A stretch of DNA of 54,439 bases from a virus (taxonomy: Duplodnaviria; Caudoviricetes). The position numbers and the translations under genes were made by a program. The notes under the pieces are model-generated. The model was not told the DNA's origin. It searched no databases and saw nothing but the letters and a program-made list of their open reading frames with translations. Location of the stretch: IMG/VR virus record IMGVR_UViG_3300025102_000037, positions 1-54,439 of that record; one strand, 5' to 3'. Below, piece after piece: positions 28,001-47,974 of this stretch (position 1 is its first letter; every line of letters starts with the position of its first letter).

Positions 28001-31000
28001 TTACGGAGAAGAAGGTAAGGCTGAGCTTGCTAAAATGAAAGAGCTTGCTTTACAAGCTGCTGGTATTGTTGTTAAGAATGGCAAACCAGATGCATCCTTA
28101 GTGGCTAAACCAAACAATCATCGTTATGTATTTCATCATGATGGTTCTGAGTCAGGAACAACTACGGAAAAAACAGATGATGAAGTTTTAGATTTATTGG
28201 GCAAGATTAGATCTATTAAGGATCAAATTAATACACAAAGAGGTAAGGATGGAAATGATTTATCTCCAGAAGAATTAAGTGCATTGGGCGATGAATTAAC
28301 TGCAAGAAACAGCGAACTTGATGCTGTTGATGCACTACCAGATGAGTTTGGTACATTTAGAAGCCAAAGAATTATAGCTGAGCAAGAGCTTAGAGATAAC
28401 GGTAGATTTAGATCTGGTGATGGTGTTCTTGTTGTTGACATGAAAGATTTACTGGTAGAAAAACCGGGAGTTGCCTTAAGTATCTTTACTCGTAACCTTA
28501 AAAATAATAATGGTAAAATCCATAGAGGTTTCTTAGATAGAATTGCTTTGAATCGAGAAGGTCTTAATCAACTTACTTTAGGTCCTTCACAAAATGATAT
28601 GACTTATGATTCTATTTATGATTTAGCTGTTCAACTTAGTTTAGTGATTGATCAACAAATTCTTATGACTGAACATATGATTAATCCTGAAGGAACTTCT
28701 GATTTGCTTAGAGCAAAACAAAAAATTGATAATCAACTTGCCTTCTTGCGTGGACAAATTAGAGGCAACAAAGATATTAAACCTGAGCAAGAAAGTAAAA
28801 TTTTGTATTACTTAGCTCATCCTAAAGCAAAACCAGAAACAGGCGAAGAAGCGTTGCATGACGTAGCCAAGTTAATGCGTACACAATTTAATGATGTTAT
28901 TGATTTAGCTAAAGATACTGGACTCTTGTTTAAAGGTTTAGATTATTCTCCAGTTCCAATTAAGATTAATGAACAAGCCTTAATGGAAAACAGAAATGAA
29001 ATTATGAAATCATTAACTGGCGATATTGCCAAAAAGATTCGTGGTAACATGGCAGATGCTATTGACCCTATTACCCTAATGAGTTCTGGGCTGCTTCCTC
29101 CAATGTTCTTAACAAGCAAAAGAACCGATCCTAACTCTTTATCAGAAGATCAAAAGAAAGATTTTATTAATGCTGTTCAGAAACTGGCAAAGACTGAAGC
29201 TGGTCGAAAAGTTATTGAGCATGCAATTGGATTGCTACGTCCAGAACAGAAAGAACAATTTGAAGGATATCCTATTAAAGAATTATTAGGATATAAATAT
29301 CCTGTAGGTGGAGACTCTAATTGGAAGACTCATCATGTTATGAATCTTATGATTGCGTTTGAAACTTTATACGAAAAGGGATTTAAACAACAAGGATTTA
29401 GAAAAGGTGCTGGCAGACATAATGTTTTAATTGAGTTTGTAAATCAAAAACAAAACAGACAACAGTATATTGATGCAGTTAGTAGCCAAATTAATACTAA
29501 TCAATATACTATTATGAGAGCTAATAAGAAATTTAATGTTAGTGCAGTAAGAGCTACGCCCCTTGATCCGGGCAAGTCTACAGACACACCTGTTTATAGC
29601 CCCGCTACTTACAGAGCAGAATTATTTTTAGGCGAAGTTCAAAGCGGTGTTAGATTCTTGGCTGCTGATAAAGTATTTGAGCCTACCTCTTCTGAAATTG
29701 TATCTCAAATGTTGGGTACTGCTGCTGATAGAGCTGATGGTACACACACCTTAGGTGATGCTTTTGTTAAAGATAGTGAAACTTTGATTGAAGGCGTAGG
29801 TACAGGATTAGGTTTTGATGCAGTTGCTACTCTAGCAATTGGACATAGAGCTAGAGGTAATGGCTACGAAATTGAAGGTATACGTTTTGATGACATTCTT
29901 GGTGCATTGTTAGAAACGGGATCAGATGCAATCATTAGAGATCCTGTGCTTACTGAGGGTGTTCGAGATGGACTTAGAAAGAATAGAAGTATTAGCGGTC
30001 TTAGGGATTCACTAAAGGTTGTTCAAAATAAATATGATACTCTAGCGGGTCGAAGAGTTCGTGTTGATAAGACTCAGGGCTCTGGGTTGATAAACCGAAT
30101 TGCCTCTATGGGTAGTGATCTTGTGCTTGCGTCCTATGGTGGTAACTTAGCTTTGGCTACCTCTATTGTGGAAGGTACTGCTACTGCATTCCAAATGGCT
30201 GGTCGAGGTGATATGTTGCGTGGTCCTGCTATGTTGTTAAAGTCTATGTTAATGGGCGGTGCTCAAGGTACGTTGGGTGGATTGGTAAAAGCTGGTAGAT
30301 TGTTTGGATTTGAGTCTAATAGATTCCAAATTAAAAGCACTGCTGCAGAGTTATCCTATGCGTTTGAGCATACAAAAGTTAGAGGAATGGAAACAAGTAG
30401 CGATGATCCAAGTTTAGTAACAGAAGGCACTATGTCTAAAATTGGAGCATTTGTTGGACAAGTTCCTAGATCATTAGCTGATGCAGCTACTGGTGCGTCA
30501 TCTGGTGTTACTAACGGAATTAAATTTGCTGTTGAGGGATTAGCTATTAATACTTTAAATAAATTAATTCGTAGTGGCGGCTTAATGAAGATGGCCAAGT
30601 TCTTAGAAACTGATAAAGGTAAAGAACTACTGGCTTTAGGTGAGTCTGAAAACATAGCAACATCTAAATTGTATAGCCAAGTTAAAAGAATTCTAAAGGG
30701 TAGTGGCCTTTCTGATTTTGCATTCTTGGGTAAACATGATGTAAAAGTGTTTATGGCTATGATGGATTCAGGTGTATTACGTCCTGATTTCTTAAAAGAT
30801 TTAAATGATTTAATTAACGTAGCTGGCTTAGAACAGTTTATCTTTGATGGTTCTGCGGCTAAGTATAGTCCAAGAAGTTCTGCACTAACTCATATTGCCC
30901 AACTTCAAAGAGCCGCGTTAATGACTCAGGATAAAGCTAAGCGTGACAGATTTATGAATACGCTTAGTCAAATTAAAGAATATGTAAACAGAGAGATTGA

Positions 31001-32018
31001 AGCTAGATTTGTGGGTGGTAATCCATTGATGATGGATACTGCTAACTCTGCTGGTGCTATTCTATTTAAAATCTTTAGATCATATCCGACTCTGTTCTTT
31101 GGTCAAAGGTTAAGACAAGATTCTAGATACTATGGTCCGTTACAAAATGGTATTAGAATTGCTAATCTTATTTCGTTAGATATGCTTTACATGGTTGCAT
31201 CTGCTGTTGCCTCCGGCGGCTTAGATGAAAAACGTATAGATCTTTTAATGCAAGAAATTCAACAAAAGGATGCTTTAATTCGTCTTATTGCTCGCACGCC
31301 AACCTTTGGTATGTTTGGGGGAGTTCTTGCTTCTGCTGTTGCTGAAGCAGGAATCTTTGTTACGGGCGGAAAAGGTTACACACAAAACCTTTTGAACCAA
31401 GCATTTATTCCAATTCCTCTTGCTAAGATTCAATCTAGTGGCGTAAACGGTTTGCTTAATATGTTGAAGTATGCTGGTGAACATGGTGCTCAAGCAGATG
31501 CTCGTTTTAATTTAGCCTTGATGAATCTGTTAACCTCGTTACCAGTTCTGCAAGAGGCATATACCAAGGCAGCAATCCATCATTATTTCTCAACCCCTAT
31601 GATGAGAAATCTTCAAAACGAAAAACTGCAGAGAAAAATTAATGCAGGTAATCGTAGAAGAAGTGGTGGGTCTGGCGGTAGAGGAGCTGGCAGTGGAGGT
31701 CGACTCTATTATCAAGACCCTGAGGATTACAGAGCCAACCCCGGAGCTATTGAGTTTGCGGCAGATAGAAACATCTGGCCTGATGAATTAATATCTTATG
31801 ATATGTTGGCAGTTTTAGCCGGAGAGCCATTGCCGAGCCTGATGGGCCCTGCACCGCTTCCCAAGGCCGAAGACGACCCCACCCCCTCTGAAGCTGCTCC
31901 TCCGCCTCCACCGGCCCCTGAGGCCCCGCAAAAGCAAGTGGACACTTCTCCATCATTGTCAGCTAAGACTGGTAGCCCCAGTCAACGGTTCGCAGAATCA
32001 TTAGGTCAGTTCTCGTAA
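16035..32018 (+). CDS. Giant internal virion protein (gp16-like position) with a putative T7-family virion RNA polymerase domain, SAP-like motif and HExxH metallopeptidase motif
   Basis: 5327 aa, RBS AAGGAG. YFDGNFNGIHH (motif A-like, 22881), EDYY, RALFKKPVMTYLYG (exact Rx3Kx7YG, 23295), PRIVHASDAAH (25764), HELVH...EEFVAE (27585-27790). Confidence 0.75.
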   Translation: MGEAERRLFEIEDLKNVTRDLRRRHTTLDGGQNNGLTTEDYNRNRAMDAQDRTLETLERNYAYSEHTANSQAANAREAATYGQKRFGKMKDNAVIAKFLGHRDPKGAQAYNDFMYKIATPDATGNLKIADQRTTGWAAASSASWFLSNAELERGITSRNANNIKINMNLMRGGLRDYFEGEGLKEYRGDEEIERGMDSITVAGDGWNVNPLNFDESFDAFGLMDSPDLQALRYTDSNFSADTYLNEIQEINPEFVSLMNKSGVDMDVLKQTGNANEFWWNVNRGIAMLGAANTIAHWKETVPEYQEWAMMAKDFVRDSLMNDPDFAGELVIGGMLALSTGPVGIAALTGLKVAKHVGKGKKFARTLVNAARTMRKAAQKANNALPQNWGLSIGYGLRKTAVGRFLNVTSDDFIVDGMKFGTTRKYGSKLTGYMMAELPAGFVEEGIAGAYNAYSMNQTQVGRDQDLFKAFIDEGVAGSLVRAFGINPALRSINFGMRYTGAKAEKYLVDNFGSMFDEDADGMGWTRNIGAFFHRAKQITSLDDTTFLSNELDALDVMIALDELNMTEAEAIAEIEGSNVQELVNKHPALQAIATMLEFDKEGNIIGRETLTDGKKGELKLVKLIRKTREDIARQKLGIDRTEDFTEQEGDTEDVRKFKAEQREKIAKEVKEGTVSKDEFNLALMGAVWGKLDSEAKSASEARAHRDAAYFQMSLRSLALEKHQEMKKTNPKATFQEAFDAVLDDPDLLIKMDQGGVSREIDQIIAEQHPDLYETATDENSGEEYFVPKKDTEDRKYSEELAKHRRNVDFDTQLAAIKAHRKRLGIVKDMRFAIDDALQEKANTAFRELNNKINHEASFNTVVEFIEANDDGSTLIIDGGKGLIEDLNDADIIEVTVNMRGVKMPMRLSVRRPKAFERKGRGQTLKTVKVEVQALTVEKYDSVREMLNKLQIVTGIDEVKAAEKLRPLIKQAIADRLGIKDASDTDLVAMFTGLRRAQGRELTEAEADLIKGLKSDSKKNRQRKINSRTAMIDLIQNDLTEVAVGQLSVQYFDGIGLDSSNVLARLSDPEASRFILTIENARKEAQDNLALSEVLSGLGGMFNIEIVPDADPRAIAERDLIRQKDAAKVKAMNLKGKALTAELDRLGLKKSGNAKAKKERVAQAYARLLEEGKPIDGKPEAEAKPEEPAKEPTAEETEITEIESRLAEIAKMEAESKENNQELAVHIIEEKERLTERLNELKEKQPETEDEGRGITFDPADARRPGVDQETNDLMNKFLQEATDPTLPRGSIERSEDRLVALKKMKDGKVLDEKESDAIDALIREETERLERRKAEQVEEESPVEVEVLQAVEESMDESAKTTDAKTGDAIDQANKDADSGEIIAEDGTVSEDGKKAAAIRTERQANTDRAVDSQRKAEDADTSSQRVKENYNTRRPIILQELRSIEAERERLREEAREQEGEKFDDEDFATRKDVVKLDQREAKLKKELATMEEALGNASQRIAEKNKDALQKAQVKEEELKERENALAPDMDQSIAENVWAQIEVRRMKKDKANDARRILRKLKEKNPQPTIEEMHAALLEVGFSEFDAKTIANFMTEEVNGAIEADKKLSKKEKERKKLTNIRERGDTTINQDHFNTAYEAFKKRLKTEAEGELTQRELRQAKIMALYGKEEWERVRAASNPDIELDIALEGNDAIVPIRGKPFTGLINTAFDPVDRNGIDMSDDDKTAVLNANNQLALIKALERAINNLATIEGRTTITSAELASFALAVGKRKGFDVNVGQLFAKMNWAVIFRESMVTGVDEGVEYFDPESLLDELMMHKARLEYKTRGRKTKLRALEAQKESLSRDEHLQDEELLLEETLEIAEGDSDTLKELGRILFRSETSSLRGQFLVGIDPTSRKLVRTSNKAEYEATVLGAIEERMKLYFAQPRKLAKIVNFLVEEGLLDPSYRDNTSPDQTAQKMYVQAVAQYLRTYPGNKSGDLSSWGNGDISYSFADQIGMGIVDTLAGEQIGTTHEMVEDYEDDYDSSGAKIHGSDRMDPVKHRGAPIKINMAEPMLPGRLEKLKEDHRLMMVNQFIMELDLTEEEMGMIFDFTDPEKTPDKTAVGVVADRSKFIAGERPMPRIIFADPTANLQSRKKLLEDMAFALSGLHDVLLSSIHDSVNNQVYGESIPSGFLDEGIVSELYERHGIGLPGTTVAIPGREDALGRGAGEAGGFGVAGARFGTLAYHAARSYGKMYPVFRDTAIEGLATWSAFSKAINEATDIGIKSAEEALSKDTYFDGNFNGIHHKMALSFTFTEMELDWSFPTDKLRAAIADKGDALDRFLFDHHEMMGNKFVGRYKNRNKEDYYIKSAHDILLALFKRAYQGTGPEQKLAQDTVEKLQEIGFLPETLSVATFEDGITIDNLLDGEEYAKVRALFKKPVMTYLYGAKKDTINKEFKNFLVDEMGLNATEASKVSDPLTRIALGFGLKSRQIALTDLTNKDRTEDPLLKNILGDDSQLDSILKAMRTRMDAHGFTDDNQRKLREHIRNMMVDPSNPMALEDITFNNLAFQIQMRDSMIEGLIQGQLGYQPGTPEYNRMKSKINKTMQAASDKQMEFLGNRIRKGIERLSAPALTSDTPLLKLTDKELETVPKVVGILLTKPKSEWSQFEEVKPYLDKNGNISDEPVGETLNLKKNMGSFIRHIRVEINEGITREEAQEVQKEADAAIEPQEGLFQAVKAMGEVGRKLDMVALDELMEFAGISVGDPNMRNTLEKYYKNNLTYRGIGRDGYAGRWYGTEHEGTHQGPKGAQDQGVAADEPLLAMGAMLKARNEVNFDKAEQMFARYLLHRTANVHTNVEHVIVKIAKQKLEGEKDPDQIRRLKAIIAIMTPDNELTPEQRVERDIQFFEDWHSQYEVAKAVEDAVKTQGGFESLTDSERQQVKLSSMLTQATAAHGMDPETVDTPATTVEELEDRKINLGQNHGMFATRAKAFDTSFRNLGVPEFKKIRVKRILQGTGMVTGKIESLRDFMDNAEESDALMIEQEHVNNLVENPYSTEPNDLLYPELNIAESSDIAMQASRQTIQKYATSLRTKLIRFAYDHGLIEMIQRGEWQRVDYLMKVRIIRDRNHEQRRTELNRLPAELSREELTKRREEIIHRYRRKTAREIKLINQRAEENADAVSTIVEMAPGGNVSTISTGTLVNKDGTSKNLGEILNTLRNELNNLGAYGALSPVEGVAMDDLSRAVFVTEETADRPRIVHASDAAHILTLIIDMQDTADFLRTEGRELVETIIKRNDLDITVEEFTKRLPVYGKYLSLDEAIFVIDELDKKETLADRNILTLAKSAYLGQLDQEETETALRSTSSRRGLIAGTGEIATENKIQGTTGRIKLTLSQARQALLNIRNSTTLDLITDTHYTGISHLNKHKSRGTRLDQIDHVTGQRVSEMRLRDEVHAEGMQYLVDEYNVREGKPTELNTSLNVVVGGRDRSMLSQTEGGNRRLPAMGGVFAEGPFRKRRGTQQAIYLDYSQFEGETDQLHSGVLKAQLTAWKQLEVLPDELESLVDIKPPFRGEKLRLLKQQRVLGYLATHYSISDETRITIPAVIKDGKVEQKAKSFGSVAVNTALAYMELYGNTKEMFVTEGGVTRSLTLEEVIQLPEVQRMITKAETWATTALMVRTGENGKYYDEARGFVMWLAENPASFTSSDENQLDIQFFEYLKSRNKSIDLLDKAEMKAAQDALRKAISQIEVEDSLQSREVPLTLTVDPDTAAKNLENTISGVAFKSSLEQAVADGYISETTKDIVLAVVAKISASNADFLNRVDIQFGANKSRAISAMAGDRYLIELSTADGKKNPMTAAKILLHELVHVGTYKYFDLESTSDEMLQIKELMRFRSVNKLMFDMTAAFTKGDRTATFQRHRQFMKKPEEFVAESAAMFWLTEARAEIEQILSDAEGKIEFSEVEDAGKQNFIKRIRKAIVRSIDSTRNTLRSMIATMTEFESYYGEEGKAELAKMKELALQAAGIVVKNGKPDASLVAKPNNHRYVFHHDGSESGTTTEKTDDEVLDLLGKIRSIKDQINTQRGKDGNDLSPEELSALGDELTARNSELDAVDALPDEFGTFRSQRIIAEQELRDNGRFRSGDGVLVVDMKDLLVEKPGVALSIFTRNLKNNNGKIHRGFLDRIALNREGLNQLTLGPSQNDMTYDSIYDLAVQLSLVIDQQILMTEHMINPEGTSDLLRAKQKIDNQLAFLRGQIRGNKDIKPEQESKILYYLAHPKAKPETGEEALHDVAKLMRTQFNDVIDLAKDTGLLFKGLDYSPVPIKINEQALMENRNEIMKSLTGDIAKKIRGNMADAIDPITLMSSGLLPPMFLTSKRTDPNSLSEDQKKDFINAVQKLAKTEAGRKVIEHAIGLLRPEQKEQFEGYPIKELLGYKYPVGGDSNWKTHHVMNLMIAFETLYEKGFKQQGFRKGAGRHNVLIEFVNQKQNRQQYIDAVSSQINTNQYTIMRANKKFNVSAVRATPLDPGKSTDTPVYSPATYRAELFLGEVQSGVRFLAADKVFEPTSSEIVSQMLGTAADRADGTHTLGDAFVKDSETLIEGVGTGLGFDAVATLAIGHRARGNGYEIEGIRFDDILGALLETGSDAIIRDPVLTEGVRDGLRKNRSISGLRDSLKVVQNKYDTLAGRRVRVDKTQGSGLINRIASMGSDLVLASYGGNLALATSIVEGTATAFQMAGRGDMLRGPAMLLKSMLMGGAQGTLGGLVKAGRLFGFESNRFQIKSTAAELSYAFEHTKVRGMETSSDDPSLVTEGTMSKIGAFVGQVPRSLADAATGASSGVTNGIKFAVEGLAINTLNKLIRSGGLMKMAKFLETDKGKELLALGESENIATSKLYSQVKRILKGSGLSDFAFLGKHDVKVFMAMMDSGVLRPDFLKDLNDLINVAGLEQFIFDGSAAKYSPRSSALTHIAQLQRAALMTQDKAKRDRFMNTLSQIKEYVNREIEARFVGGNPLMMDTANSAGAILFKIFRSYPTLFFGQRLRQDSRYYGPLQNGIRIANLISLDMLYMVASAVASGGLDEKRIDLLMQEIQQKDALIRLIARTPTFGMFGGVLASAVAEAGIFVTGGKGYTQNLLNQAFIPIPLAKIQSSGVNGLLNMLKYAGEHGAQADARFNLALMNLLTSLPVLQEAYTKAAIHHYFSTPMMRNLQNEKLQRKINAGNRRRSGGSGGRGAGSGGRLYYQDPEDYRANPGAIEFAADRNIWPDELISYDMLAVLAGEPLPSLMGPAPLPKAEDDPTPSEAAPPPPPAPEAPQKQVDTSPSLSAKTGSPSQRFAESLGQFS

Positions 32019-32028
32019 GGAGTTCTTT

Positions 32029-32478
32029 ATGTTATCAGCTTTTCTTAATCCTGAAATGTTATCCCTGCTGACGGGAAGTGTCACAGGGTTTATCTTTAAG
32101 AGTATGGCGGAGAAACGAAAAAATGAACAAGAAAAATTTATGCGAGTACTTCAGGCTCAAGAGGCATCGGATGACTCAGCGAATCAAGCTGCTGAAAGAG
32201 TTAGTGATGCAGGAGGCAAGCTGGTTAGGCGTTGTATTGTTATATGTATTTTGTTCGCTACTATTATTGCTCCTTTTATCATTGCTTTCAATGACGGGAT
32301 AACTACAGTAGTGGAGCATACTGAGACAGTGTATGGATGGTGGGATCTTTTGAAGATGTTCCCTGAAGAGAAAACTATATTTACTGAAGTTGACGGGTTT
32401 TTATTTACTCCTGAGAATAGAAATATTCTAGTGACTATCGTAGGATTTTACTTTGGTCAAGCTGTGAAAGGGCGATAG
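32029..32478 (+). CDS. Putative holin (3-TM type)
   Basis: RBS AAGGAG. Three hydrophobic stretches and a C-terminal IVGFYFG motif; last gene of the AT-rich late block. Confidence 0.65.
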   Translation: MLSAFLNPEMLSLLTGSVTGFIFKSMAEKRKNEQEKFMRVLQAQEASDDSANQAAERVSDAGGKLVRRCIVICILFATIIAPFIIAFNDGITTVVEHTETVYGWWDLLKMFPEEKTIFTEVDGFLFTPENRNILVTIVGFYFGQAVKGR

Positions 32479-32556
32479 GGGTCACGAATTTGTAAGGGGC
32501 TTTCTAAGATTTTTGTTTTGAGATGACCCCCATTACCCCCCTTGAAAGGATTTGTG

Positions 32557-32775
32557 ATGAACTACGATATTTCTGCTTTGACTGACTGGCTTGACATGCA
32601 ACAGATTACTGCTGTCATTGACAAGCACGAGCACCAGCTCGGGCCTTGGCCCATTAAGCCTTATCCCGGCAGCACGGCGTTTAGGCGTGCCCTCTATCGC
32701 TACCTCAGCACTCGGGACAAGACACCCGAGCAATGGGAAGAGGATCGCTACGCCGATTGGTGCGACTCTCTCTAA
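32557..32775 (+). CDS. Hypothetical protein, first gene of the GC-rich early region
   Basis: ATG after GAAAGGA; followed by a perfect hairpin. Confidence 0.55.
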   Translation: MNYDISALTDWLDMQQITAVIDKHEHQLGPWPIKPYPGSTAFRRALYRYLSTRDKTPEQWEEDRYADWCDSL

Positions 32776-32784
32776 CCACCGCCT

Positions 32785-32806
32785 CGCTAGGCTTAACGGC
32801 CTAGCG
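32785..32806 (+). repeat. Hairpin CGCTAGGC-TTAACG-GCCTAGCG (C-TTARCG-G family, copy 1)
   Basis: Perfect 8-bp inverted repeat with a TTAACG loop, 10 nt after a stop codon. Confidence 0.8.
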
Positions 32807-32853
32807 TTGCTTTCCTTAACGCCGGGAGTTATGACCCTGAGCGGAGGTGCACT

Positions 32854-32895
32854 GGCACCGCTGGGCTACCCTTAGCGGGGTAGCTCAGTCATTCC
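32854..32895 (+). repeat. Hairpin CTGGGCTACCC-TTAGCG-GGGTAGCTCAG (copy 2); also a degenerate direct repeat of 33425-33466
   Basis: 11-bp stem with one G-T pair. The flanks GGCACyGCTGGGCTACC and GGGGTAG...CATTCC recur at 33425. Confidence 0.8.
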
Positions 32896-32938
32896 ATAGG
32901 CACACTGCAGCCTTCAATGCAGAGATTAGGAGACTGTT

Positions 32939-33424
32939 ATGAAACAGTTGATTACTACCGTAGCGTGTGTTGCTATCCTGTCGTTCGTCTTTGGCGTGGC
33001 TGTGGGTAGCTCTGAGCCGAAGCCTGCCCAAGCAGTGGGCTTTGAGCTTGAGCGATCACCAGCTGTTGCCATGGCTAACACCTTGCTGGAGATGTCACCA
33101 CTCGAGGATGCTATCTGGTTGGCTGAGTCCAACCGATGGACCGGAGAGTTGGGACCAATCTTTGGTGACGATGGCGATGCCTGTGGTCCGTTGCAGATTC
33201 ACTATGCCTGTTGGGTTGATGCTCTTGAGCACGACCCAAGCATTGGTGGTCAGTACCGGAACTGTCAGGATCTAGGCTATGCCCTGTCTATCTTCCGTGC
33301 TTACATGGATAGATACGGTCAGGGTAAGACTGATCGACAGAAGGCACGCATCTGGAACGGTGGACCGAAAGGCCACCTGAAGGCTGCAACACTTAGCTAC
33401 GCTGCCTTGTCCTACTTGGACTAA
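32939..33424 (+). CDS. Lysozyme-fold enzyme (i-type/destabilase-like) with N-terminal signal or anchor
   Basis: RBS AGGAG. Hydrophobic N-terminus; AIWLAES (catalytic Glu), GDDGDACGPLQIHYACWVDA, YMDRYG, ARIWNGGPKG..AATLSY. Confidence 0.8.
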   Translation: MKQLITTVACVAILSFVFGVAVGSSEPKPAQAVGFELERSPAVAMANTLLEMSPLEDAIWLAESNRWTGELGPIFGDDGDACGPLQIHYACWVDALEHDPSIGGQYRNCQDLGYALSIFRAYMDRYGQGKTDRQKARIWNGGPKGHLKAATLSYAALSYLD

Positions 33425-33537
33425 GGCACTGCTGGGCTACCTCGAAAGGGGTAGTGCCAGCATTCCCACCTCTTTGCTGGTTGCGGCGGGGGATGGAAGG
33501 TGGGTAAGCCACCATCGCAGGTAACTGTGGTGGTGGT
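33425..33537 (+). other. Cluster of intergenic RNA hairpins (possible RNase III/processing or termination signals)
   Basis: CTACCTC-GAAA-GGGGTAG, CCCACCT...AGGTGGG and GCCACCATCGCAG-GTAA-CTGTGGTGGTGGT. GNRA loops and G-U pairs point to RNA-level structure. Confidence 0.6.
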
Positions 33538-33595
33538 ATTAGCGGTGGTTAGCCGTGAGCTTGCTGGTGCGTACCAGCGATAGGAATACTTTACC

Positions 33596-34093
33596 ATGAA
33601 CAGGTATAAGTTTCTTCTTGATCGTGTAGCAACAGATGTGTTCGCGTGGCCTCGTGGTCCACAACATCCACCTCTGTTCTATGTCACCATTTACAAAGTC
33701 ACACGCTGTTACGGTGGTCCTGAAGAGGGCGGCTGGGATTACGACCATACAGATTATCTGTCATCGTGTCCAGTCCGCGATCTTCACTACGCTGCAGAGT
33801 TGATTGAAGCATTGGAGGCTGAGCCCTCATTGCAGAAACAACCTAAACCGTATCCAGTGAGTCCGATGCATGGCGATCCTTTTGATCTCATGAACGACTC
33901 GGATGACTGGACACCACGCGGTGCGGACGGGGATGTACGGTATGAGTTCAGTATTGAAGTCATGCCAGACCACCCCAACCTCACTCATTATAGAAACAAT
34001 CTTGAACGAGTATCGTTCTATGATGATGGCGACCGACGGTTCTATACCGTTGGCTGGAGACAATCACCCGCTGGTGTCCCTCGTTACGAGTGA
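33596..34093 (+). CDS. Phage hypothetical protein (YGGPEEGGW motif)
   Basis: YVTIYKVTRCYGGPEEGGWDYD, a motif I recognise from small phage early proteins; function unknown. Confidence 0.7.
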   Translation: MNRYKFLLDRVATDVFAWPRGPQHPPLFYVTIYKVTRCYGGPEEGGWDYDHTDYLSSCPVRDLHYAAELIEALEAEPSLQKQPKPYPVSPMHGDPFDLMNDSDDWTPRGADGDVRYEFSIEVMPDHPNLTHYRNNLERVSFYDDGDRRFYTVGWRQSPAGVPRYE

Positions 34094-34319
34094 TGCCCTC
34101 ACCGCCTTGTGCTCTCGGAGGGGAGCACTTGGCCTTTCCCCTTGCTTGCAGGGGACACGCGAAAGGAGTTCGCAATGCGATTGCCAGTGATGGCAAACCG
34201 CAGGACTATATGCGTCCGCTGAGGATGACAGTCCTCAACTGGGCAGTCCTCAACCTTCGGGCTGAGGTATCTGGTGTGGCATAGTGAAGCCCTACATTTA
34301 CTGATTGGAATAGATTACC

Positions 34320-34877
34320 ATGAAGAATTTCTTCAAGAAATCGGAATCGACATTCAAGACCCCTGAAAAGGTCATGTCGGTTGTCTCCTTTTCCTTTGAC
34401 CGGAACGAGGGATGGCAAGTAATTGCTACTACCCTCCTTCCCAATGCCAACTTCCGAGCTGAACGCGAAGTTGTTGGTACTCTCGGGTTCGAGGCACAGC
34501 CTGATGCTGTTGTCAAGAATCTGGTCAAGCAGGCCCATGCGTCGAATCGTGAACTCGTTTCGATCATCCCTGCTGGCAAGGACGGCGAGCAAGTACGCCC
34601 AGCTTACTGGGCTACCGTTGCTTGCTCGACAGACGGTTACACTTTGACCGTCGAGGCCCTGATGCCAAAGGCCATCGCCCCGTATATCGAGGGTGTTGGT
34701 GCAGGCTTCAGCGTTGATCTCAAGACCAAGACCTACGGGCGTAAGCTCAAGGCTGAGGTCGGGCAGATCCTTTCCAGCTATGATCCGCAGGACGCTCCTG
34801 CGGGGAGCATCGTGTTCTCACTCTGTGTCGCGAACGGCTCAGGGTACATCTCAATGTACAAAGCCTTGAACGGCTAA
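34320..34877 (+). CDS. Beta-rich hypothetical protein (possible nucleic-acid-binding factor)
   Basis: 185 aa with strong C-ending codon bias and alternating hydrophobic strands; followed by a hairpin. Confidence 0.65.
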   Translation: MKNFFKKSESTFKTPEKVMSVVSFSFDRNEGWQVIATTLLPNANFRAEREVVGTLGFEAQPDAVVKNLVKQAHASNRELVSIIPAGKDGEQVRPAYWATVACSTDGYTLTVEALMPKAIAPYIEGVGAGFSVDLKTKTYGRKLKAEVGQILSSYDPQDAPAGSIVFSLCVANGSGYISMYKALNG

Positions 34878-34902
34878 ACACATTGGGCTTCACACCACAC
34901 CA

Positions 34903-34932
34903 CTCTTACCCTGCTTAGCGGCGGGGTAAGGG
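34903..34932 (+). repeat. Hairpin CTCTTACCCTGC-TTAGCG-GCGGGGTAAGGG (copy 3)
   Basis: 12-bp stem with two G-T pairs and the same TTAGCG loop as copy 2, but a different stem sequence. Confidence 0.8.
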
Positions 34933-35124
34933 CTTTGCCGATCATCTCTTATGATAATATTATGTTATCATATGCCATCATACATCATGGGTAGTGGTTG
35001 TGGTGGTGGTGATGGTGGCGGGCTTGGGTCTATCTTGTGGATAACCCGGGTCTACATCCGTATCCCATGGCTGTCCGTCCATAGGGGTACCTGCTTTTTT
35101 CCACGGACGATAAGGAGATCACCA

Positions 35125-35442
35125 ATGAGTGATAAACGTGTTTACAATCATAGAACTCCTCACAACTTGTATCCTATGGGGTACCAGTACATGATGATAG
35201 CTTGGAATGATCGTCATCCAGATGATCAGATGGAGAGCCGTCAAGTCATGGAGCATGCTGTCAAGCGTGCTGAGTTTTCGTTTGTACAGGCTCTGAGCAA
35301 TGACCCTTTGATCAGGGATATCTTAGAGGCTACCGTTCCTCTTCCTAATCCAACTGACCAACAGCGTAGGCTGACACGGATAGTTGGGCTTAAAGAGGGG
35401 ATGCCCGAATCGTTTAATGAATTCAAAAGGAATCAATTCTAA
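35125..35442 (+). CDS. Hypothetical protein, possibly sigma-region-4-like HTH
   Basis: Likely start MSDKRVY after TAAGGAG rather than 34951. MGYQYMMIAW...SRQVMEHAVKRAEFSFVQAL loosely fits the region-4 pattern. Confidence 0.6.
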   Translation: MSDKRVYNHRTPHNLYPMGYQYMMIAWNDRHPDDQMESRQVMEHAVKRAEFSFVQALSNDPLIRDILEATVPLPNPTDQQRRLTRIVGLKEGMPESFNEFKRNQF

Positions 35443-35636
35443 TGTCATTATCTGATAATGAACGTATTGAACTGAAGGAACTCCGAGCAGATAAAGCTGT
35501 TTATGAAAATAGAATAGCATATCTGGAGCAGACAGTTAGATCATATAAGATTGAAATTAATTGTCTACGCAACAAGAGACTTAGCCCTGCTGAGGTTAAG
35601 CAAGAGACAATCCGTCGACTGAAGGCTGGATTGTAA
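35442..35636 (+). CDS. Small coiled-coil hypothetical protein
   Basis: ATG overlaps the upstream TAA; heptad pattern. Confidence 0.6.
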   Translation: MSLSDNERIELKELRADKAVYENRIAYLEQTVRSYKIEINCLRNKRLSPAEVKQETIRRLKAGL

Positions 35637-35729
35637 GCGGAGAGTTGAAGAGAATGGATGGCACTGGGGAAACCTAGTGTCATCCTTTGCCTGTGTCGCA
35701 TTACGATACAACAGGTTTACTTTCTCCTC

Positions 35730-35763
35730 GTGACCTGTCTCCGGCAAGAGGCAGGTCGCCTTT
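35730..35763 (+). terminator. Hairpin upstream of the compact RNAP (weak terminator or processing site)
   Basis: GTGACCTGTCTC-CGGCAA-GAGGCAGGTCGC, a 12-bp stem followed by only a short CTTT. Confidence 0.45.
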
Positions 35764-35830
35764 AGTACCAACTGTGGTACTGACTCTGCCACTGAGTTAG
35801 TGGTGATTTTATTCTTGAAAGGATTCCATT

Positions 35831-37615
35831 ATGCAGACTATGCAAAAGTGGATGACTGAACTCATCTCCCGTGTGGAGTGTGAGTGTGGGATCTCTGTTA
35901 CCACGGAGATCAAGAACATGTTGTGGGATGGTCGGACTAAGGCTTACATCGTCAACGCTCTGCGTAAGACGGTTATGGTCCACTGCTCCGGTAAGTACGC
36001 ACAGGATCCGTCCTATGCTGAACGTGCATTGCTGGCTCTCATGGTTACTAATGGACTGACAAGTCCAAAGGAAAGCCGTGAAGGTCGTGTGCTCTTCAAT
36101 CCCCCTGAGCTGGCTGAACGTCGTGCTCTTGTGTCCAAGAACGTACATGTCAATGTGCCTGATGCCTATCGTGACTCGCTTGCGTGGGCTCAGGCTACCC
36201 CTTACCGGGTGAACACTGACATGCTTGGACTGCTCATGGATGCCAACCTCTTGGAAGAGTGGGAGGCTGAAGAAGCAATTCGTGTTGTCTCTGACAACGA
36301 TGGTATCTTCTACCTTGATTGCTTTATGGATTTCCGTGGTCGTACCTACACGAATCACTATGGTAGCCTGTCCCCGCAGGCGAACCAGAACGTCCGTGCC
36401 TTGGTCGACTTTGGTTACGAGACTCCAGTTGGATTGTGCAGTGATAACTACAACATGCTGATGGGTGTGTTGGAGGAGGAGTACAAGGTCAACTGGAAGA
36501 ACTACACCAAGATCCTGAAGAATGCAAAGTCTCTCCTTGCAGACAAAGCACATGGGAAGAAGACTGCCGGTGTTATCCGTGCAGCCCTGTGCCTGAAGGA
36601 GATTGCTACGACTGGCAAGTCTGCGTACATTGTACAGCAGGATGCTACTTGCTCTGGCTTCCAGCACATGGCTGCGCTTCTGCGTGACCGTGATCTGGGT
36701 AGTCTGGTCAACCTCACGGCTGGCACTCGTAGTGACTTGTACATGGCTGCTACCGACTTCCTGTGTGAACAGGGGACGGCAGTTGGCGTGTTCTTGGCTG
36801 ACCATGACCGAAAGGTTGTGCGTTCTGAACTCGCTAAGCCAACTGTCATGTTGACAGGCTATGCCTCTACCGCTGAGGCACTAGCCCTGTCGTACCTTGG
36901 GTACGATGGCAAGGCAGAGTACACGGACAAGACCGGCGAAACTGTCATTGCGACACGTTTCAAGGATGTGAAGCAGGCACTGAAGCAAGGTGCTGATGTC
37001 AACTTCAATCCTGATTCAATCATGACTCAATGGTTGGATGGTCGGACTGGTGAGAAAGCTATGTATGCTGCACTCACCTTTGCTCGTGAGTTCCAAGAGG
37101 CATTGTTCACGCTCTGCCCCTCGGTCAAGGAACTCATTACTTCAATCAAGGGTGCTGCTTTATCGCACTTCAACAAGACTGGGGCAACTCTATCTTGGAC
37201 TACACCATTGGGATTGTTTATCTTTCTTTCCCCTTGGAAAGTCACTGAAGATACGCACACTGTCTCTTTCCAATCTGGAGGGATTCGCAAATCCATGAAC
37301 GTCTTGTCATTGCGACCTGACTCCATGGGTGGTGCAGCAGGAGCTTTACCCAACTTGATTCACTCCTTGGATGCTTGCCTTGTTCACATGGTAAACCTTG
37401 CCCGCATCGGGCTGGGTATGCCATGGGCTGACATCCATGACTCCTTCGGCTCCACTGTTGGAGATGTCAAGCGTACCGTTGAACTGGTGAATGACGCTTT
37501 CGTTGAGGTTCACACCAAGTTTGAGATCAATGATGATGTGCTTCGATTGCACAATCGTTCGATCTTGAGCAAGGGTGATCTCTGTCTCTCAGAGTTGGAA
37601 CAAATTATCTTCTGA
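35831..37615 (+). CDS. Compact T7-family single-subunit RNA polymerase (594 aa, N-terminal domain largely absent)
   Basis: MDFRGRTY (aa 167), QQDATCSGFQH (motif A), SDLY, RSELAKPTVMLTGYA (variant motif B), WTTPLG, PNLIHSLDA, IHDSFG (motif C), C-terminal IIF. RBS GAAAGGA. Confidence 0.92.
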   Translation: MQTMQKWMTELISRVECECGISVTTEIKNMLWDGRTKAYIVNALRKTVMVHCSGKYAQDPSYAERALLALMVTNGLTSPKESREGRVLFNPPELAERRALVSKNVHVNVPDAYRDSLAWAQATPYRVNTDMLGLLMDANLLEEWEAEEAIRVVSDNDGIFYLDCFMDFRGRTYTNHYGSLSPQANQNVRALVDFGYETPVGLCSDNYNMLMGVLEEEYKVNWKNYTKILKNAKSLLADKAHGKKTAGVIRAALCLKEIATTGKSAYIVQQDATCSGFQHMAALLRDRDLGSLVNLTAGTRSDLYMAATDFLCEQGTAVGVFLADHDRKVVRSELAKPTVMLTGYASTAEALALSYLGYDGKAEYTDKTGETVIATRFKDVKQALKQGADVNFNPDSIMTQWLDGRTGEKAMYAALTFAREFQEALFTLCPSVKELITSIKGAALSHFNKTGATLSWTTPLGLFIFLSPWKVTEDTHTVSFQSGGIRKSMNVLSLRPDSMGGAAGALPNLIHSLDACLVHMVNLARIGLGMPWADIHDSFGSTVGDVKRTVELVNDAFVEVHTKFEINDDVLRLHNRSILSKGDLCLSELEQIIF

Positions 37616-37633
37616 TAATCCTCTCTGACCAAC

Positions 37634-37666
37634 GATGTATGGATGTGAAAGCATCCATGCATCTTT
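37634..37666 (+). terminator. Hairpin terminator after the compact RNAP
   Basis: GATGTATGGATGT-GAAA-GCATCCATGCATC followed by TTT and an AT-rich tract. Confidence 0.65.
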
Positions 37667-37884
37667 ATGCCGATTAATAATTTATTATTACTATTTATTA
37701 TTATCAATGTATCTGTAATGGTTATGGATGTGATGGTGATGGTGGTGGTAATGGTGGATGCAGGACGCAGGACTCCCGAGAGGGTCCCCCCCGCAAGCGG
37801 GTCCCCCCCAAGAACCTCGGCAGATCCAGCGTCCTAGGCGACCCCGGTCAGACGGGGCTGACACAACTTCATAGGAGAATAAAC

Positions 37885-38172
37885 ATGAAGGTGAATGTGA
37901 TGGATACTAAATCCAAATACGAGGCTATGGTGGCTGATGGTAAGGCTGCTGTGGTGAAAGGTATTGCTTGTGGCCCTGCTGGGTCTAAGCAAAAGGTAGC
38001 CAAGCAAGTGTGCGAGGCTAATGGAATCTCACTGGAAAAGACAGTGAAGAAAGTAAAGGACTACACCACGATGGATGATGCTGTGCTGGCAAACATTCTG
38101 TCGATGGATCATGTAGGTGAAGACAAGAAGGCCGCTGTGCAAGCAGAGGTTGATCGGAGAGCAAATGCGTAA
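37885..38172 (+). CDS. Hypothetical protein
   Basis: RBS AGGAG; 95 aa, K/A/V-rich. Confidence 0.7.
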   Translation: MKVNVMDTKSKYEAMVADGKAAVVKGIACGPAGSKQKVAKQVCEANGISLEKTVKKVKDYTTMDDAVLANILSMDHVGEDKKAAVQAEVDRRANA

Positions 38173-38389
38173 AGCAACAATCTCAGATGCAAGAGTTGAT
38201 TATCTGTACTATATCAAGGGATACAGTTTACAACAAGTTGCTGAATCACTTGGCTATACACCAGATGGTATTTACAAAAGCATGAAACGACGAGGTAAGA
38301 AACTTCGTCCACGAGGTCGACACAAGATGGTAACAATCAACTTGTCTGGCGACTGGCGTAAACAATTGAACGCATCACTGCGTAAGTGA
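38165..38389 (+). CDS. Helix-turn-helix DNA-binding protein
   Basis: LYYIKGYSLQQVAESLGYTPDGIYKSMKRRGKKLRPRG. ATG 38165 follows GGAG. Confidence 0.75.
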   Translation: MRKATISDARVDYLYYIKGYSLQQVAESLGYTPDGIYKSMKRRGKKLRPRGRHKMVTINLSGDWRKQLNASLRK

Positions 38390-38491
38390 TGTACTGAATC
38401 ACATAGAGGTGATAAACTATCGACGCTATCAAGGTGTAGTGGTCAAATCAAACACACAAACTACTTCACTAGTCTAATTAACTAGTGATTA

Positions 38492-38676
38492 GCCGTGGCG
38501 GAATAACTCTTTAACAGAGGAGTAACGCACAACTACCAAGATGGAGACCCATCTGGCAGAGTCCAATCGGATGAGCCAACCTTAGTCAGGTTCGTGTAGG
38601 TGGTACGAAGTAAGGACACTCGAACTTGATCTGTTCCCGAAAAGTTGTAGGTAAACAAGCAATCCTACCGGCACCA
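38492..38676 (+). ncRNA. Putative tRNA-like structured ncRNA ending in ACCA
   Basis: 5' GCCG pairs with 3' CGGC-A-CCA; TGGCGGAAT..AACGC D-arm-like segment; GTAGG/CCTAC T-arm-like stem; several internal helices; no ORF. Confidence 0.6.
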
Positions 38677-38829
38677 AACTATTTGATAACATTATCACCC
38701 GGACTGAAATGTTCGCGTTAACATGTGTGCTGTTATCAACGCCTTACCCCACAGGTGTAAAGAGGTGGGTAGCAGGGGTGCGATTCTGCTAAACCAACGC
38801 ACACTTTTTCAACAAGGTAATTGTGATAG

Positions 38830-38885
38830 AACACTAGTAACTTGAGTGACCAACACTTGAGTTGCTAGTGTTTTATTTTATTTTT
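38830..38885 (+). terminator. Rho-independent terminator
   Basis: 19-bp stem AACACTAGTAACTTGAGTG / CACTTGAGTTGCTAGTGTT followed by a long T-rich run. Confidence 0.8.
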
Positions 38886-39348
38886 GGGGGGTATTTGTGG
38901 TGGCTATTGTGGCCCCAAGGAGATAACATGTACCCAATCGAAGATGATTTCGATGACATTCAATGTGAAGACTTTTATGGAGATGACTATGAGGCCGTGG
39001 AAACTGACTCTTGATATCGACGCTACCCACAAGTATGATGGTGAAGGTAGTGGAACAAAGGTAGCATACTTTGTAGATACTATGGCTAGTAAAGCTTGGT
39101 GTCAAACTATTACATCATACAATATCAATGTGACTAGAAAATATGGCTATCAACAAAACTATGATGATGCTTTCAAACGCTTTGAACTTGTAATCAATGG
39201 TGAATTTCTAGACAAAGCATTGGAACAATGCCGTACAATTATGCGATCATTGTCTGTTACATCTTACTTGAACTACTGTCAGGTAGAAAGAGAGTATCAT
39301 AATGGAACGGAAGAAGCCGAAGAAGCTGAAGTTTCCCCGCCGTATTGA
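38884..39348 (+). CDS. Hypothetical protein (true start probably downstream of 38884)
   Basis: Long + strand ORF with several internal ATGs; no recognisable motif. Confidence 0.5.
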   Translation: MGGICGGYCGPKEITCTQSKMISMTFNVKTFMEMTMRPWKLTLDIDATHKYDGEGSGTKVAYFVDTMASKAWCQTITSYNINVTRKYGYQQNYDDAFKRFELVINGEFLDKALEQCRTIMRSLSVTSYLNYCQVEREYHNGTEEAEEAEVSPPY

Positions 39349-42423: not shown

Positions 42424-44862
42424 ATGCTTTGGGATAAACTGTCTTATGAAGAACAGCAAAGAAGAATTGATATCGAATCTACTATGGAAGAGGAGACGTT
42501 GTTATCTTCTATCCAAAAGTATTGGGATGATTATGACAGGGCACCCGATGAGGGTATCCCTGAACAAAAACTATTAGATGATTTTATTGATGAGCTAGCT
42601 CCCCAGTATCAGGAGTGGATTGATAAGGTATCTGATAGTCCTAAGTGTCCGCAGTGGGTCTACCCATTATTTGCATTAGGTGCTCACAAGATGGCAGACC
42701 TAACGCTTAGATCTGTGATGCGACTGTGGCTAAACAGTAATGCTTTCAAAGAAGACAGCGATGGTATTGTACACCCACCACTTGCACAGCATGTGGTTAG
42801 AATGATATCTAAAGATGCAGTAAATATTATTGCTTATCAGCTAGCTAAAGAAGAACACAGAGATGACTGGCAAAGACAGTCTAAGTTTATTAAAAACTGG
42901 TCAGAAAAAAGATGTATTGCTTTTGCTACTAAGATGGCAAAGATTCCAGACATGACGCTCAAACAGAAGGATGACTTTGGTCATCACATGTTGCGTATTG
43001 CAGAAGCTTCTGGCGTAGTGCAGACTACTAAACGCAGCAAGCGCAGGGGTAGAGGGTGGACTCATGCATTGCATGTAGAGTTTAGCCCTGCTATCCTAGC
43101 CTATCTTAATGAACGACACAAGCTAATGGAAACATCTATGCTTGTATATCGTCCAATGATTATACCCCCTGTTGAGCACAACTTAGATAGTTCCGGTGGG
43201 TATCTTCACCACTGGATTCGTAAAGAAGTTGTACATAGATATGTCTCTGAGTATGCAGAAGATAAAGTTGTACACCAAAAACACTCAGAGCCGTCACAGT
43301 TTGTGCTTGATGGTGTCAATGCTATGATGCAAACGGAATGGACAGTCAATGACAGAGTGTTAGAAGTTATGGAAAACATGTTTAAGTCAAACAATCAATT
43401 AGCTAATCTACCTGCATATAACTTTGATGAGTTCTCATATAATGAACCGTACCCTGAAGATGGGCCGAAAGATGTGCAGGCTAAATGGTGTCAGCGTAGA
43501 GAAGAGATGTACAGTAATTGGTTTAAACAAGAGCAGGCTAGAGCTAGAATGTTAGTTCGCTTGACTCTTGCTAAGAAGATGCAGAAGTATCAATTCTTTT
43601 ACATGCCAATGACGCTCGACTTCCGGGGGCGAGCGTACACTACATGTGAGTTACTGTCTCATCAAAGCTCTGACTTTGATAAAGCATTGATTCATTTTGC
43701 TGAGCCTGTAAAACAAACAGATCGTGGATTGTATTGGGTTAAAGTTCATGCTGCTAATATGTTTGATCAAGATAAACTTTCTTTTGATGAGAGAGTAGAG
43801 TGGGTAGATGATAACATGGATATGCTTCAAGCAATTAATGATGATCCCTACTCTAATAAAGAGTGGGTATCAGATAAAAAGAAAAAGAATCCATCATTCC
43901 AAAGGCTTGCTGCTGTGTTTGAAGTATGCCGTACAGATGGGTTGACTCAGTTAGCACCGCAGATGGATGGCGCATGCAATGGTTCGCAGCACTGGGCTGC
44001 TATCATGGGTGATAAGGTAATTGGTGCATTAACTAATGTGTTACCTGAAGACAAACCACAAGATCTGTACCAATTTATTGCAGATAAAACTACTGACTAT
44101 TGTCGAAAAAATACTAAGAATATTTCTTGGTGTGAAGACTTCCTTGAGTATTGGCCTGAAGGTATTGATCGTGCTGTAACCAAACGACCTACTATGTGTG
44201 ACGCATATGGGCTAACATTTTATGGTATTCAAAAGTATATTAAGATTGAAGGTCATGTTGACTGGGTGCCCAAGGAAAAACAAGGTGGAGCTATTGTAGA
44301 GTTAGCCCGAGCAATCCAGCATGGGCTAGGTGAGGCATTGCAGGAGCCCAATCGTGGCAAGGAATGGCTCAAGGAATGTGCTGAGATATGTGGTAATGCT
44401 GGCTTTCACCTAGAGTACACTGTCCCTAGTGGCTTTAAAGTAGTACATGCATACTACCAGATTAAAAAGAGAAGATCATTAGCGTCACTCTTTAACCACA
44501 AAGAACTTATATTTTGGAATGTTTCTAAAGAAGTGAATAGAGATAAAGCAATGCTTGGTATACCACCAAACTACATACACTCACTAGATGCAAGCCATAT
44601 GTTCTGCACTGTAAAACAAATGATTAATGCGGGTATTGAAAGATTCAGTATGATCCATGATTCGTATGGTTGTCCCGCACCATATGTGGATATGATGAAT
44701 CAATTTATTAGAGATGAGTTTTTAAAAATGCACAAGGAGAATCAACTTGAAGTATTCAAACGATGCGTCGAAGCAACCACGGGGGTCACACTCCCTGATG
44801 TCCCAGACAGAAGAGACATGGAACTCGAGCGAGTCTTGGACTCCAAGTACTTCTTTTCATGA
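42424..44862 (+). CDS. T7-like DNA-directed RNA polymerase (canonical, 812 aa)
   Basis: PMIIPP, LDFRGRAY, QMDGACNGSQH (A), QDLY, RAVTKRPTMCDAYG (B), PPNYIHSLDASH, MIHDSYG (C), C-terminal YFFS. Confidence 0.97.
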   Translation: MLWDKLSYEEQQRRIDIESTMEEETLLSSIQKYWDDYDRAPDEGIPEQKLLDDFIDELAPQYQEWIDKVSDSPKCPQWVYPLFALGAHKMADLTLRSVMRLWLNSNAFKEDSDGIVHPPLAQHVVRMISKDAVNIIAYQLAKEEHRDDWQRQSKFIKNWSEKRCIAFATKMAKIPDMTLKQKDDFGHHMLRIAEASGVVQTTKRSKRRGRGWTHALHVEFSPAILAYLNERHKLMETSMLVYRPMIIPPVEHNLDSSGGYLHHWIRKEVVHRYVSEYAEDKVVHQKHSEPSQFVLDGVNAMMQTEWTVNDRVLEVMENMFKSNNQLANLPAYNFDEFSYNEPYPEDGPKDVQAKWCQRREEMYSNWFKQEQARARMLVRLTLAKKMQKYQFFYMPMTLDFRGRAYTTCELLSHQSSDFDKALIHFAEPVKQTDRGLYWVKVHAANMFDQDKLSFDERVEWVDDNMDMLQAINDDPYSNKEWVSDKKKKNPSFQRLAAVFEVCRTDGLTQLAPQMDGACNGSQHWAAIMGDKVIGALTNVLPEDKPQDLYQFIADKTTDYCRKNTKNISWCEDFLEYWPEGIDRAVTKRPTMCDAYGLTFYGIQKYIKIEGHVDWVPKEKQGGAIVELARAIQHGLGEALQEPNRGKEWLKECAEICGNAGFHLEYTVPSGFKVVHAYYQIKKRRSLASLFNHKELIFWNVSKEVNRDKAMLGIPPNYIHSLDASHMFCTVKQMINAGIERFSMIHDSYGCPAPYVDMMNQFIRDEFLKMHKENQLEVFKRCVEATTGVTLPDVPDRRDMELERVLDSKYFFS

Positions 44863-47822: not shown

Positions 47823-47895
47823 GGCTCCATAGCCCAACGGCAGAGGCAGTGGACTTAAAATCCATCCAGTCCGGGTTCGAATCCCGGTGGAGCTA
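47823..47895 (+). tRNA. tRNA-Leu(TAA), short variable loop, CCA not encoded
   Basis: GGCTCCA/TGGAGCT acceptor stem; GTGGA-CT-TAA-AA-TCCAT anticodon arm; CCGGG-TTCGAAT-CCCGG T arm; discriminator A. Confidence 0.88.
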
Positions 47896-47898
47896 TTT

Positions 47899-47972: not shown

Positions 47973-47974
47973 TT

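Follow-up and report, generated by a model that had tools for sequence, protein, structure and literature searches.

The Locus and Its Surroundings

The stretch of DNA under analysis, hereafter the window, covers a complete viral record (54,439 bases) from end to end, and the phage that it represents is T7-like in its gene complement, with RNA polymerase, gp2.5-like SSB, primase/helicase, DNA polymerase, exonuclease and terminase. Two giant ORFs lie behind the terminase gene, at 10788–16022 (1744 codons) and 16035–32018 (5327 codons), the second of which alone takes up 29% of this 54-kb T7-like genome. Beyond them extends a block, 32000–38000, with a G+C content of 50% against 37–43% elsewhere, which contains GGT-rich repeats, two intergenic copies of a 42-nt hairpin-forming repeat (32854–32895 and 33425–33466) and a second, shorter paralogue of the T7-type RNA polymerase (35831–37615), the full-length one being encoded at 42424–44862. 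The adjoining region 38300–39000, which is the subject of this study, gave no blastn match against 50,697 phage records.

This region includes a non-coding island of about 500 nt, situated behind the last gene of the preceding block and at the border between the GC-richer block and the early-gene region. An ORF-free gap had been noted here in a previous reading of the sequence only, and it is real: the last convincing upstream ORF, belonging to a small helix-turn-helix-like gene, ends at 38389, the next ORFs begin at 38884/38928, and the interval holds only short, unconserved ORFs, with a frame-breaking indel in the related contig L004. One of these, a 40-aa ORF at 38723–38845, was considered as coding and rejected, given its frame-breaking indels in L004 and a compensatory pair that points to RNA structure. 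At the downstream edge, a good ribosome-binding site and ATG at 38928 open a frame of 28 codons only (38928–39014), which overlaps a 154-codon frame (38884–39348) lacking an obvious start signal; such an overlap could mean a small early gene, but also a frameshift or a mistake in the assembly.

Comparison with relatives defines the borders of the structured element in this island: the conserved block begins at a 5' hairpin and ends after ACCAAACU, with dissimilar flanks. The structured RNA that the sequence-only reading had placed at 38492–38676 exists, but its span was too short and overlooked the 5' hairpin at 38467–38487. The island is organized as follows.

38467–38680, + strand: the entire manA-like RNA element, a block conserved among relatives whose flanks diverge on either side (Rfam RF01745 match at 38467–38677)
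38683–38739, + strand: separate hairpin module with a 9-bp stem, outside the manA-like RNA; present in the window, L003 and L004, absent from L150 and L002
38772–38801, + strand: small motif, candidate compact pseudoknot; present in the window, L002 (two copies), L003, L004 and L150 (two copies)
38829–38885, + strand: terminator-like hairpin of 20 pairs with a T run behind it; kept in L004, absent from L003

The modules on the 3' side of the RNA come and go among relatives. The small motif at 38772–38801 accompanies the manA-like RNA in every clade member, spanning 28–37 nt with invariant letters, and its predicted pseudoknot would consist of two 4-bp stems, GCAG/CUGC and UGCG/CGCA; the other copies lie at 3267–3303 and 3653–3680 in L002, 6911–6940 in L003, 3364–3391 in L004 and twice on the minus strand of L150, and an Rfam scan of the motif found no match. 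A further hairpin of the island, 38748–38769, shows one compensatory pair in L004. The word CAAACTA occurs on both flanks of the RNA (38456–38465 and 38674–38683), with three matches in the window versus 0.7 expected, and different insertions directly follow its downstream copy, of 44 nt in L003 and of 37 nt in a contig from an RNA library (run X20); these flanking copies look like a module junction or a processing site. On the upstream side, no sigma-70-like site was found on the + strand from 38389 to 38467, and the 22-mer preceding the 5' hairpin occurs once in the window and in none of the 20 largest repeat families listed for 32000–54439.

A Divergent Member of the manA Family

The RNA family called manA was described from T4-like cyanophages, marine metagenomes and two γ-proteobacteria (Weinberg et al. 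2010, PMC2864571). Its Rfam model, RF01745, aligns over model positions 1–192 to 38467–38677 of the window (+ strand) with 44.1 bits, which falls short of the curated gathering cut-off of 55.2 bits, and with E-values of 5.1e-10 in a local scan and 3.9e-8 over the whole window. Where canonical manA has a stem-loop with a conserved word in its loop, this alignment carries mismatch marks and the window is left unmatched. All other Rfam matches at the locus are chance microRNA matches on the terminator hairpin, and at curated thresholds the whole window returns two tRNAs only. A scan against Rfam had been proposed together with the sequence-only reading, under the rule that a strong match would confirm the RNA while removing its novelty; by this rule the manA match, even below the cut-off, confirms the RNA and takes most of the novelty away.

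Starting from the neighbouring RNA-polymerase-like protein, four related viral contigs were found, three of which have a manA-like match of 40–42 bits at the same place. Pattern scans added L150 and a scan of metagenomes with an invariant 30-mer added 16 contigs, so that the clade considered here comprises 10 distinct sequences from viral and metagenome contigs, nine of them full length. The window retains the conserved junction words of the family, GUG.C.GAAUAA, UAA.G. and UGU.GGUA...AAUCC.ACC, located around the stems P1 and P2 and the 3' hairpin. The pattern of junction words common to the window and the Rfam consensus retrieved at least 120 viral stretches, nearly all of canonical manA, and further pattern scans led to several unannotated groups of manA-like variants in viral contigs, namely L113/L149 and the L094, L135/L144, L132 and L159 types. 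The junction nucleotides are very conserved in all groups. In terms of Rfam scores, canonical loci reach 170–195 bits, L006 118.7, L113 56.3 (above the cut-off), L094 47.1, the window 44.1 and the other variant groups 23–34.5; manA scores thus form a continuum from canonical members to variant groups.

The reciprocal search leads to the same family. A covariance model built from five clade sequences only, R1, recovers all 33 variant-group loci (rough E-values from 1e-8 to 2e-21) and 11 of 24 canonical manA loci (rough E-values from 6.5e-6 to 6e-3), and every match is full length and lies at manA positions. We conclude that the element at 38467–38680 is to be counted in a broadly defined manA family, as a distinct subgroup missed by the current Rfam model; the full-length RF01745 match and the R1 search bear out what had previously been a hedged guess, that this might be the marine phage motif manA. 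The element is a real, conserved, structured non-coding RNA, and it is not a new RNA class.

Besides the full-length match to the model, the junction words and the marine phage origin, this RNA shares with canonical manA the succession of a 5' hairpin, P1, P2 with an inner hairpin, a three-hairpin central domain and a 3' hairpin, as well as complementary loops at the same two places. It differs by its score, by having 4 bp in P1 instead of 5, by changed loop words, by a shorter stem with a different loop in place of the stem-loop that precedes the 3' hairpin, by its T7-like phage where the canonical hosts are T4-like cyanophages, and by not lying directly upstream of a gene. With the variant groups, which the clade model finds at 35–74 bits, it has in common a GAAA stretch before the 3' hairpin and CAA in the loop of this hairpin, and with L113 also a non-coding island closed by a terminator. 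The variant groups, however, are without approximately 28 nt of the central domain, about one hairpin, which this clade has kept; moreover, most of them are leader RNAs, preceded by a sigma-70-like promoter and having a gene start within 60 nt.

Several features of the wider family were encountered in these comparisons. A gene for a gp32-like SSB (phrog_224, E of 1e-115 or better) lies 28–90 nt downstream of manA in the canonical L009 and L025 and in the variants L127, where it begins 28 nt from the RNA, and L132, where the distance is about 90 nt; this association is not named in the portions of PMC2864571 available to us. A conserved G+C-rich element of about 35 nt lies some 30–70 nt upstream of the manA-like RNA in L094, L145, L149, L152, L153 and L113, in contigs of 31–170 kb, and gave no Rfam match in L094 or L113. 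Across 596 Gb of cellular genomes there were 24 pattern matches versus about 30 expected by chance, according to our estimate; a real manA core is present in four of the 24, in each case canonical and never of the window type. These four are L174 (Nonlabens xiamenensis), L179 (a Prochlorococcus single-cell genome), L168 and L175, one of them being a cultured flavobacterium, and they may represent prophages or phage contamination.

Fold and Covariation

The secondary structure of the element consists of the following parts.

38467–38487, + strand: 5' hairpin P0, 6-bp stem and 9-nt loop; included in the Rfam model, one compensatory pair in L004
38492–38495, + strand: 5' strand of the closing stem P1, pairing with 38669–38672; two pairs change on both sides in L150
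38498–38528, + strand: P2 (38498–38500 with 38526–38528) around the conserved GAAUAA and a 6-bp hairpin; cross-group covariation
38530–38602, + strand: central domain, stem 38530–38536 with 38596–38602, enclosing hairpins A, B and C; covariation of stem and hairpins
38540–38553, 38555–38577 and 38578–38592, + strand: hairpins A, B and C, respectively; covariation within the clade (for B, in the outer stem)
38545–38548, + strand: loop of hairpin A, complementary to 38585–38588 in loop C; the window allows 3 bp here, and eight of nine full-length clade sequences allow 4 bp
38613–38638, + strand: stem D (38613–38616 with 38635–38638), whose loop holds CUUGAU (38625–38630); two compensatory pairs in the clade
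38647–38668, + strand: 3' hairpin, 5 bp with a 12-nt loop; middle pair G-C in five of nine sequences and A-U in four of nine
38669–38680, + strand: 3' strand of P1 and conserved tail ACCAAACU; the tail is invariant in five clade members and absent from other groups

The structure that was scored includes ten nested helices and two loop-loop pairings. Pairing holds in 96.5% of cells among the 10 distinct sequences of the clade, and both partners have changed in 10 pairs, versus 3.7 in shuffled alignments, none of 500 of which reaches 10; sliding the partners as a control leaves 0–1 such pairs. The relatives therefore keep the fold, as a search for covarying homologues, previously suggested as a check, was meant to establish. 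In the cross-group alignment of 42 distinct sequences, which was fitted to the model and so favours pairing, 94.0% of cells are paired versus 67.1% after shuffling, and 34 of 45 pairs are compensatory. An anchor-based script that never required pairing in P1 or P2 was applied to 140 distinct family members: P1 positions 2–5 are paired in 139–140 of them, with five pair types, and the same proportion holds for all three pairs of P2, the third of which is G-C, U-G, A-U or U-A and is paired in 139. Folding energy by itself is weak evidence, with z-scores of −1.88 on the + strand and −0.36 on the − strand. Taken helix by helix, these data show the manA core fold, in which P1 is stacked against the 3' hairpin, P2 and its inner hairpin are arranged around GAAUAA/UAA, and a central stem carries three hairpins.

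Much of what had been drawn by eye at the periphery of this fold is retained. The terminal stem GCCG/CGGC (38492–38495 with 38669–38672) becomes GUGG/CCAC in L150, the GCG/CGC helix (38498–38500 with 38526–38528) shows compensatory changes, and so does the GTAGG/CCTAC hairpin, which had been called T-stem-like. Across groups, P2 covaries at two of its three pairs and the inner hairpin at all six; the latter had been proposed as CTCT/AGAG and is indeed a hairpin, although better described as a 6-bp stem (38507–38512 with 38517–38522). At the 5' end, L150 has a different hairpin at the place of P0. Canonical manA has a long stem with an inner hairpin after the central domain and before the 3' hairpin, and the shorter stem D stands in for it here. 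G-U pairs are invariant in two helices of the clade, which, like the difference in z-scores, favours the + strand.

The interior had to be redrawn. The stem of the central domain is CAACUAC/GUAGGUG, for which all seven pairs change on both sides across the variant groups. It competes with the helix ACAACT/AGTTGT assigned by the sequence-only reading, which has no compensatory changes and overlaps the GTAGG stem by 2 nt. A 3-bp remnant of that helix, AAC/GUU, can be paired by eye, with ACC/GGU and AGG/CUU in variant groups, and was rejected as it competes with the well-supported central stem. The CCA(A)GATGG hairpin stands as far as GATGG/CCATC is concerned, where relatives show compensatory changes, but its CCA/TGG extension has none and competes with a covarying GGC/GCC stem. 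The pairing of TCAGGTTCG with CGAACTTGA is without compensatory changes and is broken in three of five sequences, exactly where hairpin C covaries internally; compensatory changes are likewise absent from the CCTTA/TAAGG pseudoknot.

Leader or Free-Standing RNA

How should a manA RNA located behind the last gene of a block be understood, when manA was proposed as a riboswitch candidate (PMC2864571) and Rfam assigns to it a cis-acting role of the riboswitch/attenuator type? The main rival to a free-standing RNA is indeed such a leader or attenuator role, by which a ligand or protein bound at the conserved junction would gate the read-through of the 38829–38873 hairpin into the early genes. The family at large offers several arguments for this: of 95 canonical members, 91 have an ORF beginning no more than 150 nt downstream and 63 have one beginning no more than 60 nt downstream, the latter being true also of 19 of 28 variant members; some of the downstream ORFs have their ribosome-binding site right behind P1; and the strong conservation of the junction nucleotides extends to every group. 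Within the clade itself, L003 is without the terminator and its island runs into the next gene, which leaves room for a role as a long leader. Yet none of five clade members has an ORF of at least 40 aa starting within 150 nt downstream, and about 150 nt of separate modules intervene between the RNA and the terminator-like hairpin; since these modules come and go, no alternative pairing joins the RNA to the hairpin. A literature search on manA RNAs, furthermore, yielded no ligand. The RNA is not a gene leader in this phage, and its regulation of the early genes by read-through appears doubtful to us. L113, the nearest relative outside the clade, is arranged in a similar way: a T run and a classical terminator come after its RNA and precede a new promoter.

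Contigs assembled from RNA libraries (three runs from three studies) cover parts of 38485–38684, with relatives' versions also present, which is compatible with expression while falling short of proof of transcription. In four runs such contigs do not cover 38212–38484 and 38955–39300, gaps which prove nothing. Pieces from these libraries end at 38681, 38709 and 38803; they were considered as ends of the RNA and rejected, for the loose ends match the sequences of relatives and reflect strain divergence.

Likeness to tRNA

A second alternative is that the element is a tRNA mimic, namely a cloverleaf-like RNA with an ACCA end acting as a decoy or as a substrate of the CCA-adding enzyme, RNase P or synthetases. 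The sequence-only reading had favoured ideas of this kind, including a decoy of anticodon nucleases, a tmRNA or a Y RNA, and there is a loose cloverleaf topology to be seen in the closing stem flush with the 3' hairpin, the short second helix and the central arm. The ACCA word behind the closing stem is invariant in five clade members. The cloverleaf impression of manA is already in print: a comparison of RNA models published in 2013 reported a 13-bit link between manA and tRNA and observed that manA is often beside tRNAs (PMC3692125). In line with the latter observation, the manA RNA of L006 (2970–3248, − strand) ends at the first base of the tRNA heading a run of five, so that RNase P cleavage would set its 3' end, and L021 (2401–2959, − strand) has three tRNAs on the manA strand, about 140 nt upstream of the RNA. 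A permuted tmRNA gene of α-type occurs at 62–355 of the viral contig L132, 1.8 kb upstream of its variant manA RNA.

The resemblance does not go beyond the multi-helix junction, the closing stem adjoining the 3' hairpin and the ACCA of this clade. ARAGORN, applied to the whole window, detects no tRNA or tmRNA at the element and only two tRNAs, at 47823–47973, which is 9 kb away, while the local Rfam scan of 38300–39000 returned no tRNA, tmRNA or YrlA model even at E ≤ 10. Neither the lengths of the stems nor the sizes and sequences of the loops agree with tRNA, tmRNA or YrlA: the closing stem has 4 bp instead of 7, the 12-nt loop of the 3' hairpin is without T-loop sequence and there is no anticodon arm, so that the earlier remark that a TTC loop and an anticodon are lacking was correct, whereas the helix ACAACT/AGTTGT then put in the position of the anticodon stem is without support. 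The tail is unconserved outside the clade, ACCA being absent from the other groups; in the wider family, CCAA after five bases pairing with the 5' strand is found in five of 140 distinct members. Finally, the 13-bit link was deemed "presumably false" by its own authors (PMC3692125). The idea of tRNA mimicry, whether as decoy or as substrate, is consequently very unlikely.

It is hardly credible that the conservation concerns the DNA itself, be it as an origin of replication, as an array of promoters or as a region for packaging or for the genome end: the island does lie at the border of the GC-richer block and the early-gene region, and T7-like genomes have control regions at such block borders, but the compensatory changes keep pairs on one strand only, reading the other strand would turn the invariant G-U pairs into C-A mismatches, the same fold recurs in unrelated phage contexts and no repeated promoter-like word was found.

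Loop-Loop Pairing and Possible Assembly

We return to the reading of the element as a free-standing manA-class RNA, and to its two pairs of complementary loops. The loops of hairpins A and C carry UGAC/GUCA in the clade and UGGU/ACCA at the same two loops in canonical manA; the window departs from this at one of the four A/C pairs, where its loop A carries a mismatch. The loop of the 3' hairpin (bases 38654–38659) is complementary to that of stem D (38625–38630), with CUUGAU/AUCAAG in the clade, CUGUA/UACAG in canonical manA and different, still complementary words in other subgroups. In L204 this second pairing has undergone a single compensatory change and a single wobble change; five of the nine full-length distinct clade sequences leave one of its six pairs open. 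When the D and 3'-hairpin loops are compared by length of match only, the longest match is at least 5 nt in 82 of 131 cases versus 35% with shuffled loops, a weak test because matches of 4–5 nt are common by chance (among shuffled loops, 48% give 4 nt and 25% give 5 nt); the columns of these two loops are out of register in A5, the alignment made across groups.

These loops acquire meaning from the cryo-EM study of canonical manA, which reports pentamers and pentamer-based oligomers (octamers, decamers and a 60-mer cage) held together by L5-L7' and L8-L9' kissing loops, and for another member of the family L5-L7' and L3-L8' contacts with an additional GNRA-receptor contact; the oligomers were seen in vitro and with canonical members only (bioRxiv 10.64898/2026.07.01.735769). 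From the order of helices along the Rfam consensus and from the GNRA loops of the middle hairpin, we infer that L5 and L7 are the loops of the first and third hairpins of the central domain, with the GNRA loop L6 between them, and that L8 and L9 are those of the last two hairpins. The A/C and D/3'-hairpin loop pairs of the clade would accordingly correspond to the kissing-loop pairs that join canonical manA multimers. Complementarity alone fits contacts within one molecule or between molecules equally well. ROOL, GOLLD and OLE are other natural RNAs that form symmetric multimers and cage-like assemblies (bioRxiv 10.64898/2026.07.01.735769); like the element, they are structured non-coding RNAs, and canonical manA resembles them in forming closed oligomers via loop contacts, but they are several hundred nt long and unrelated in sequence.

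The mechanism that we consider most likely is self-docking via kissing loops, because the loop pairs stay complementary and would match the contacts of the cryo-EM structures. The element would be a self-contained, stable, folded RNA, the A and C loops and the D and 3'-hairpin loops of which may kiss, docking the RNA to copies of itself. We regard as quite probable, then, that this is a divergent manA-family RNA of a marine T7-like phage, self-contained in its fold, with docking to its own copies as the likeliest mode of action. A more far-reaching proposal, which we rate as less probable than not, is that such free-standing manA-class RNAs of T7-like marine phages assemble during infection through both of their co-evolving pairs of kissing loops into RNA-only multimers or shells, and that assembly, rather than ligand sensing, is the function selected throughout the family. 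If this were true, loop words that have changed yet remained complementary would constitute natural evidence that the contacts observed by cryo-EM matter in vivo.

Implications for the manA Family

Since 2010 manA has stood as an orphan among riboswitch candidates, and its canonical members are now reported, in a 2026 preprint, to build RNA-only cages (bioRxiv 10.64898/2026.07.01.735769). Our analysis extends the family well below the Rfam cut-off, into several unannotated variant groups that argue for a broader Rfam seed of manA, and adds one group in which the RNA is a free-standing element of T7-like phages and not the leader of a gene. In this same group, the loop pairs that we map to the cryo-EM contacts stay complementary with different letters. 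Hence, the wider family, its free-standing group and the changed but complementary loops together provide natural compensatory variants with which to ask whether assembly is the function of manA RNAs.
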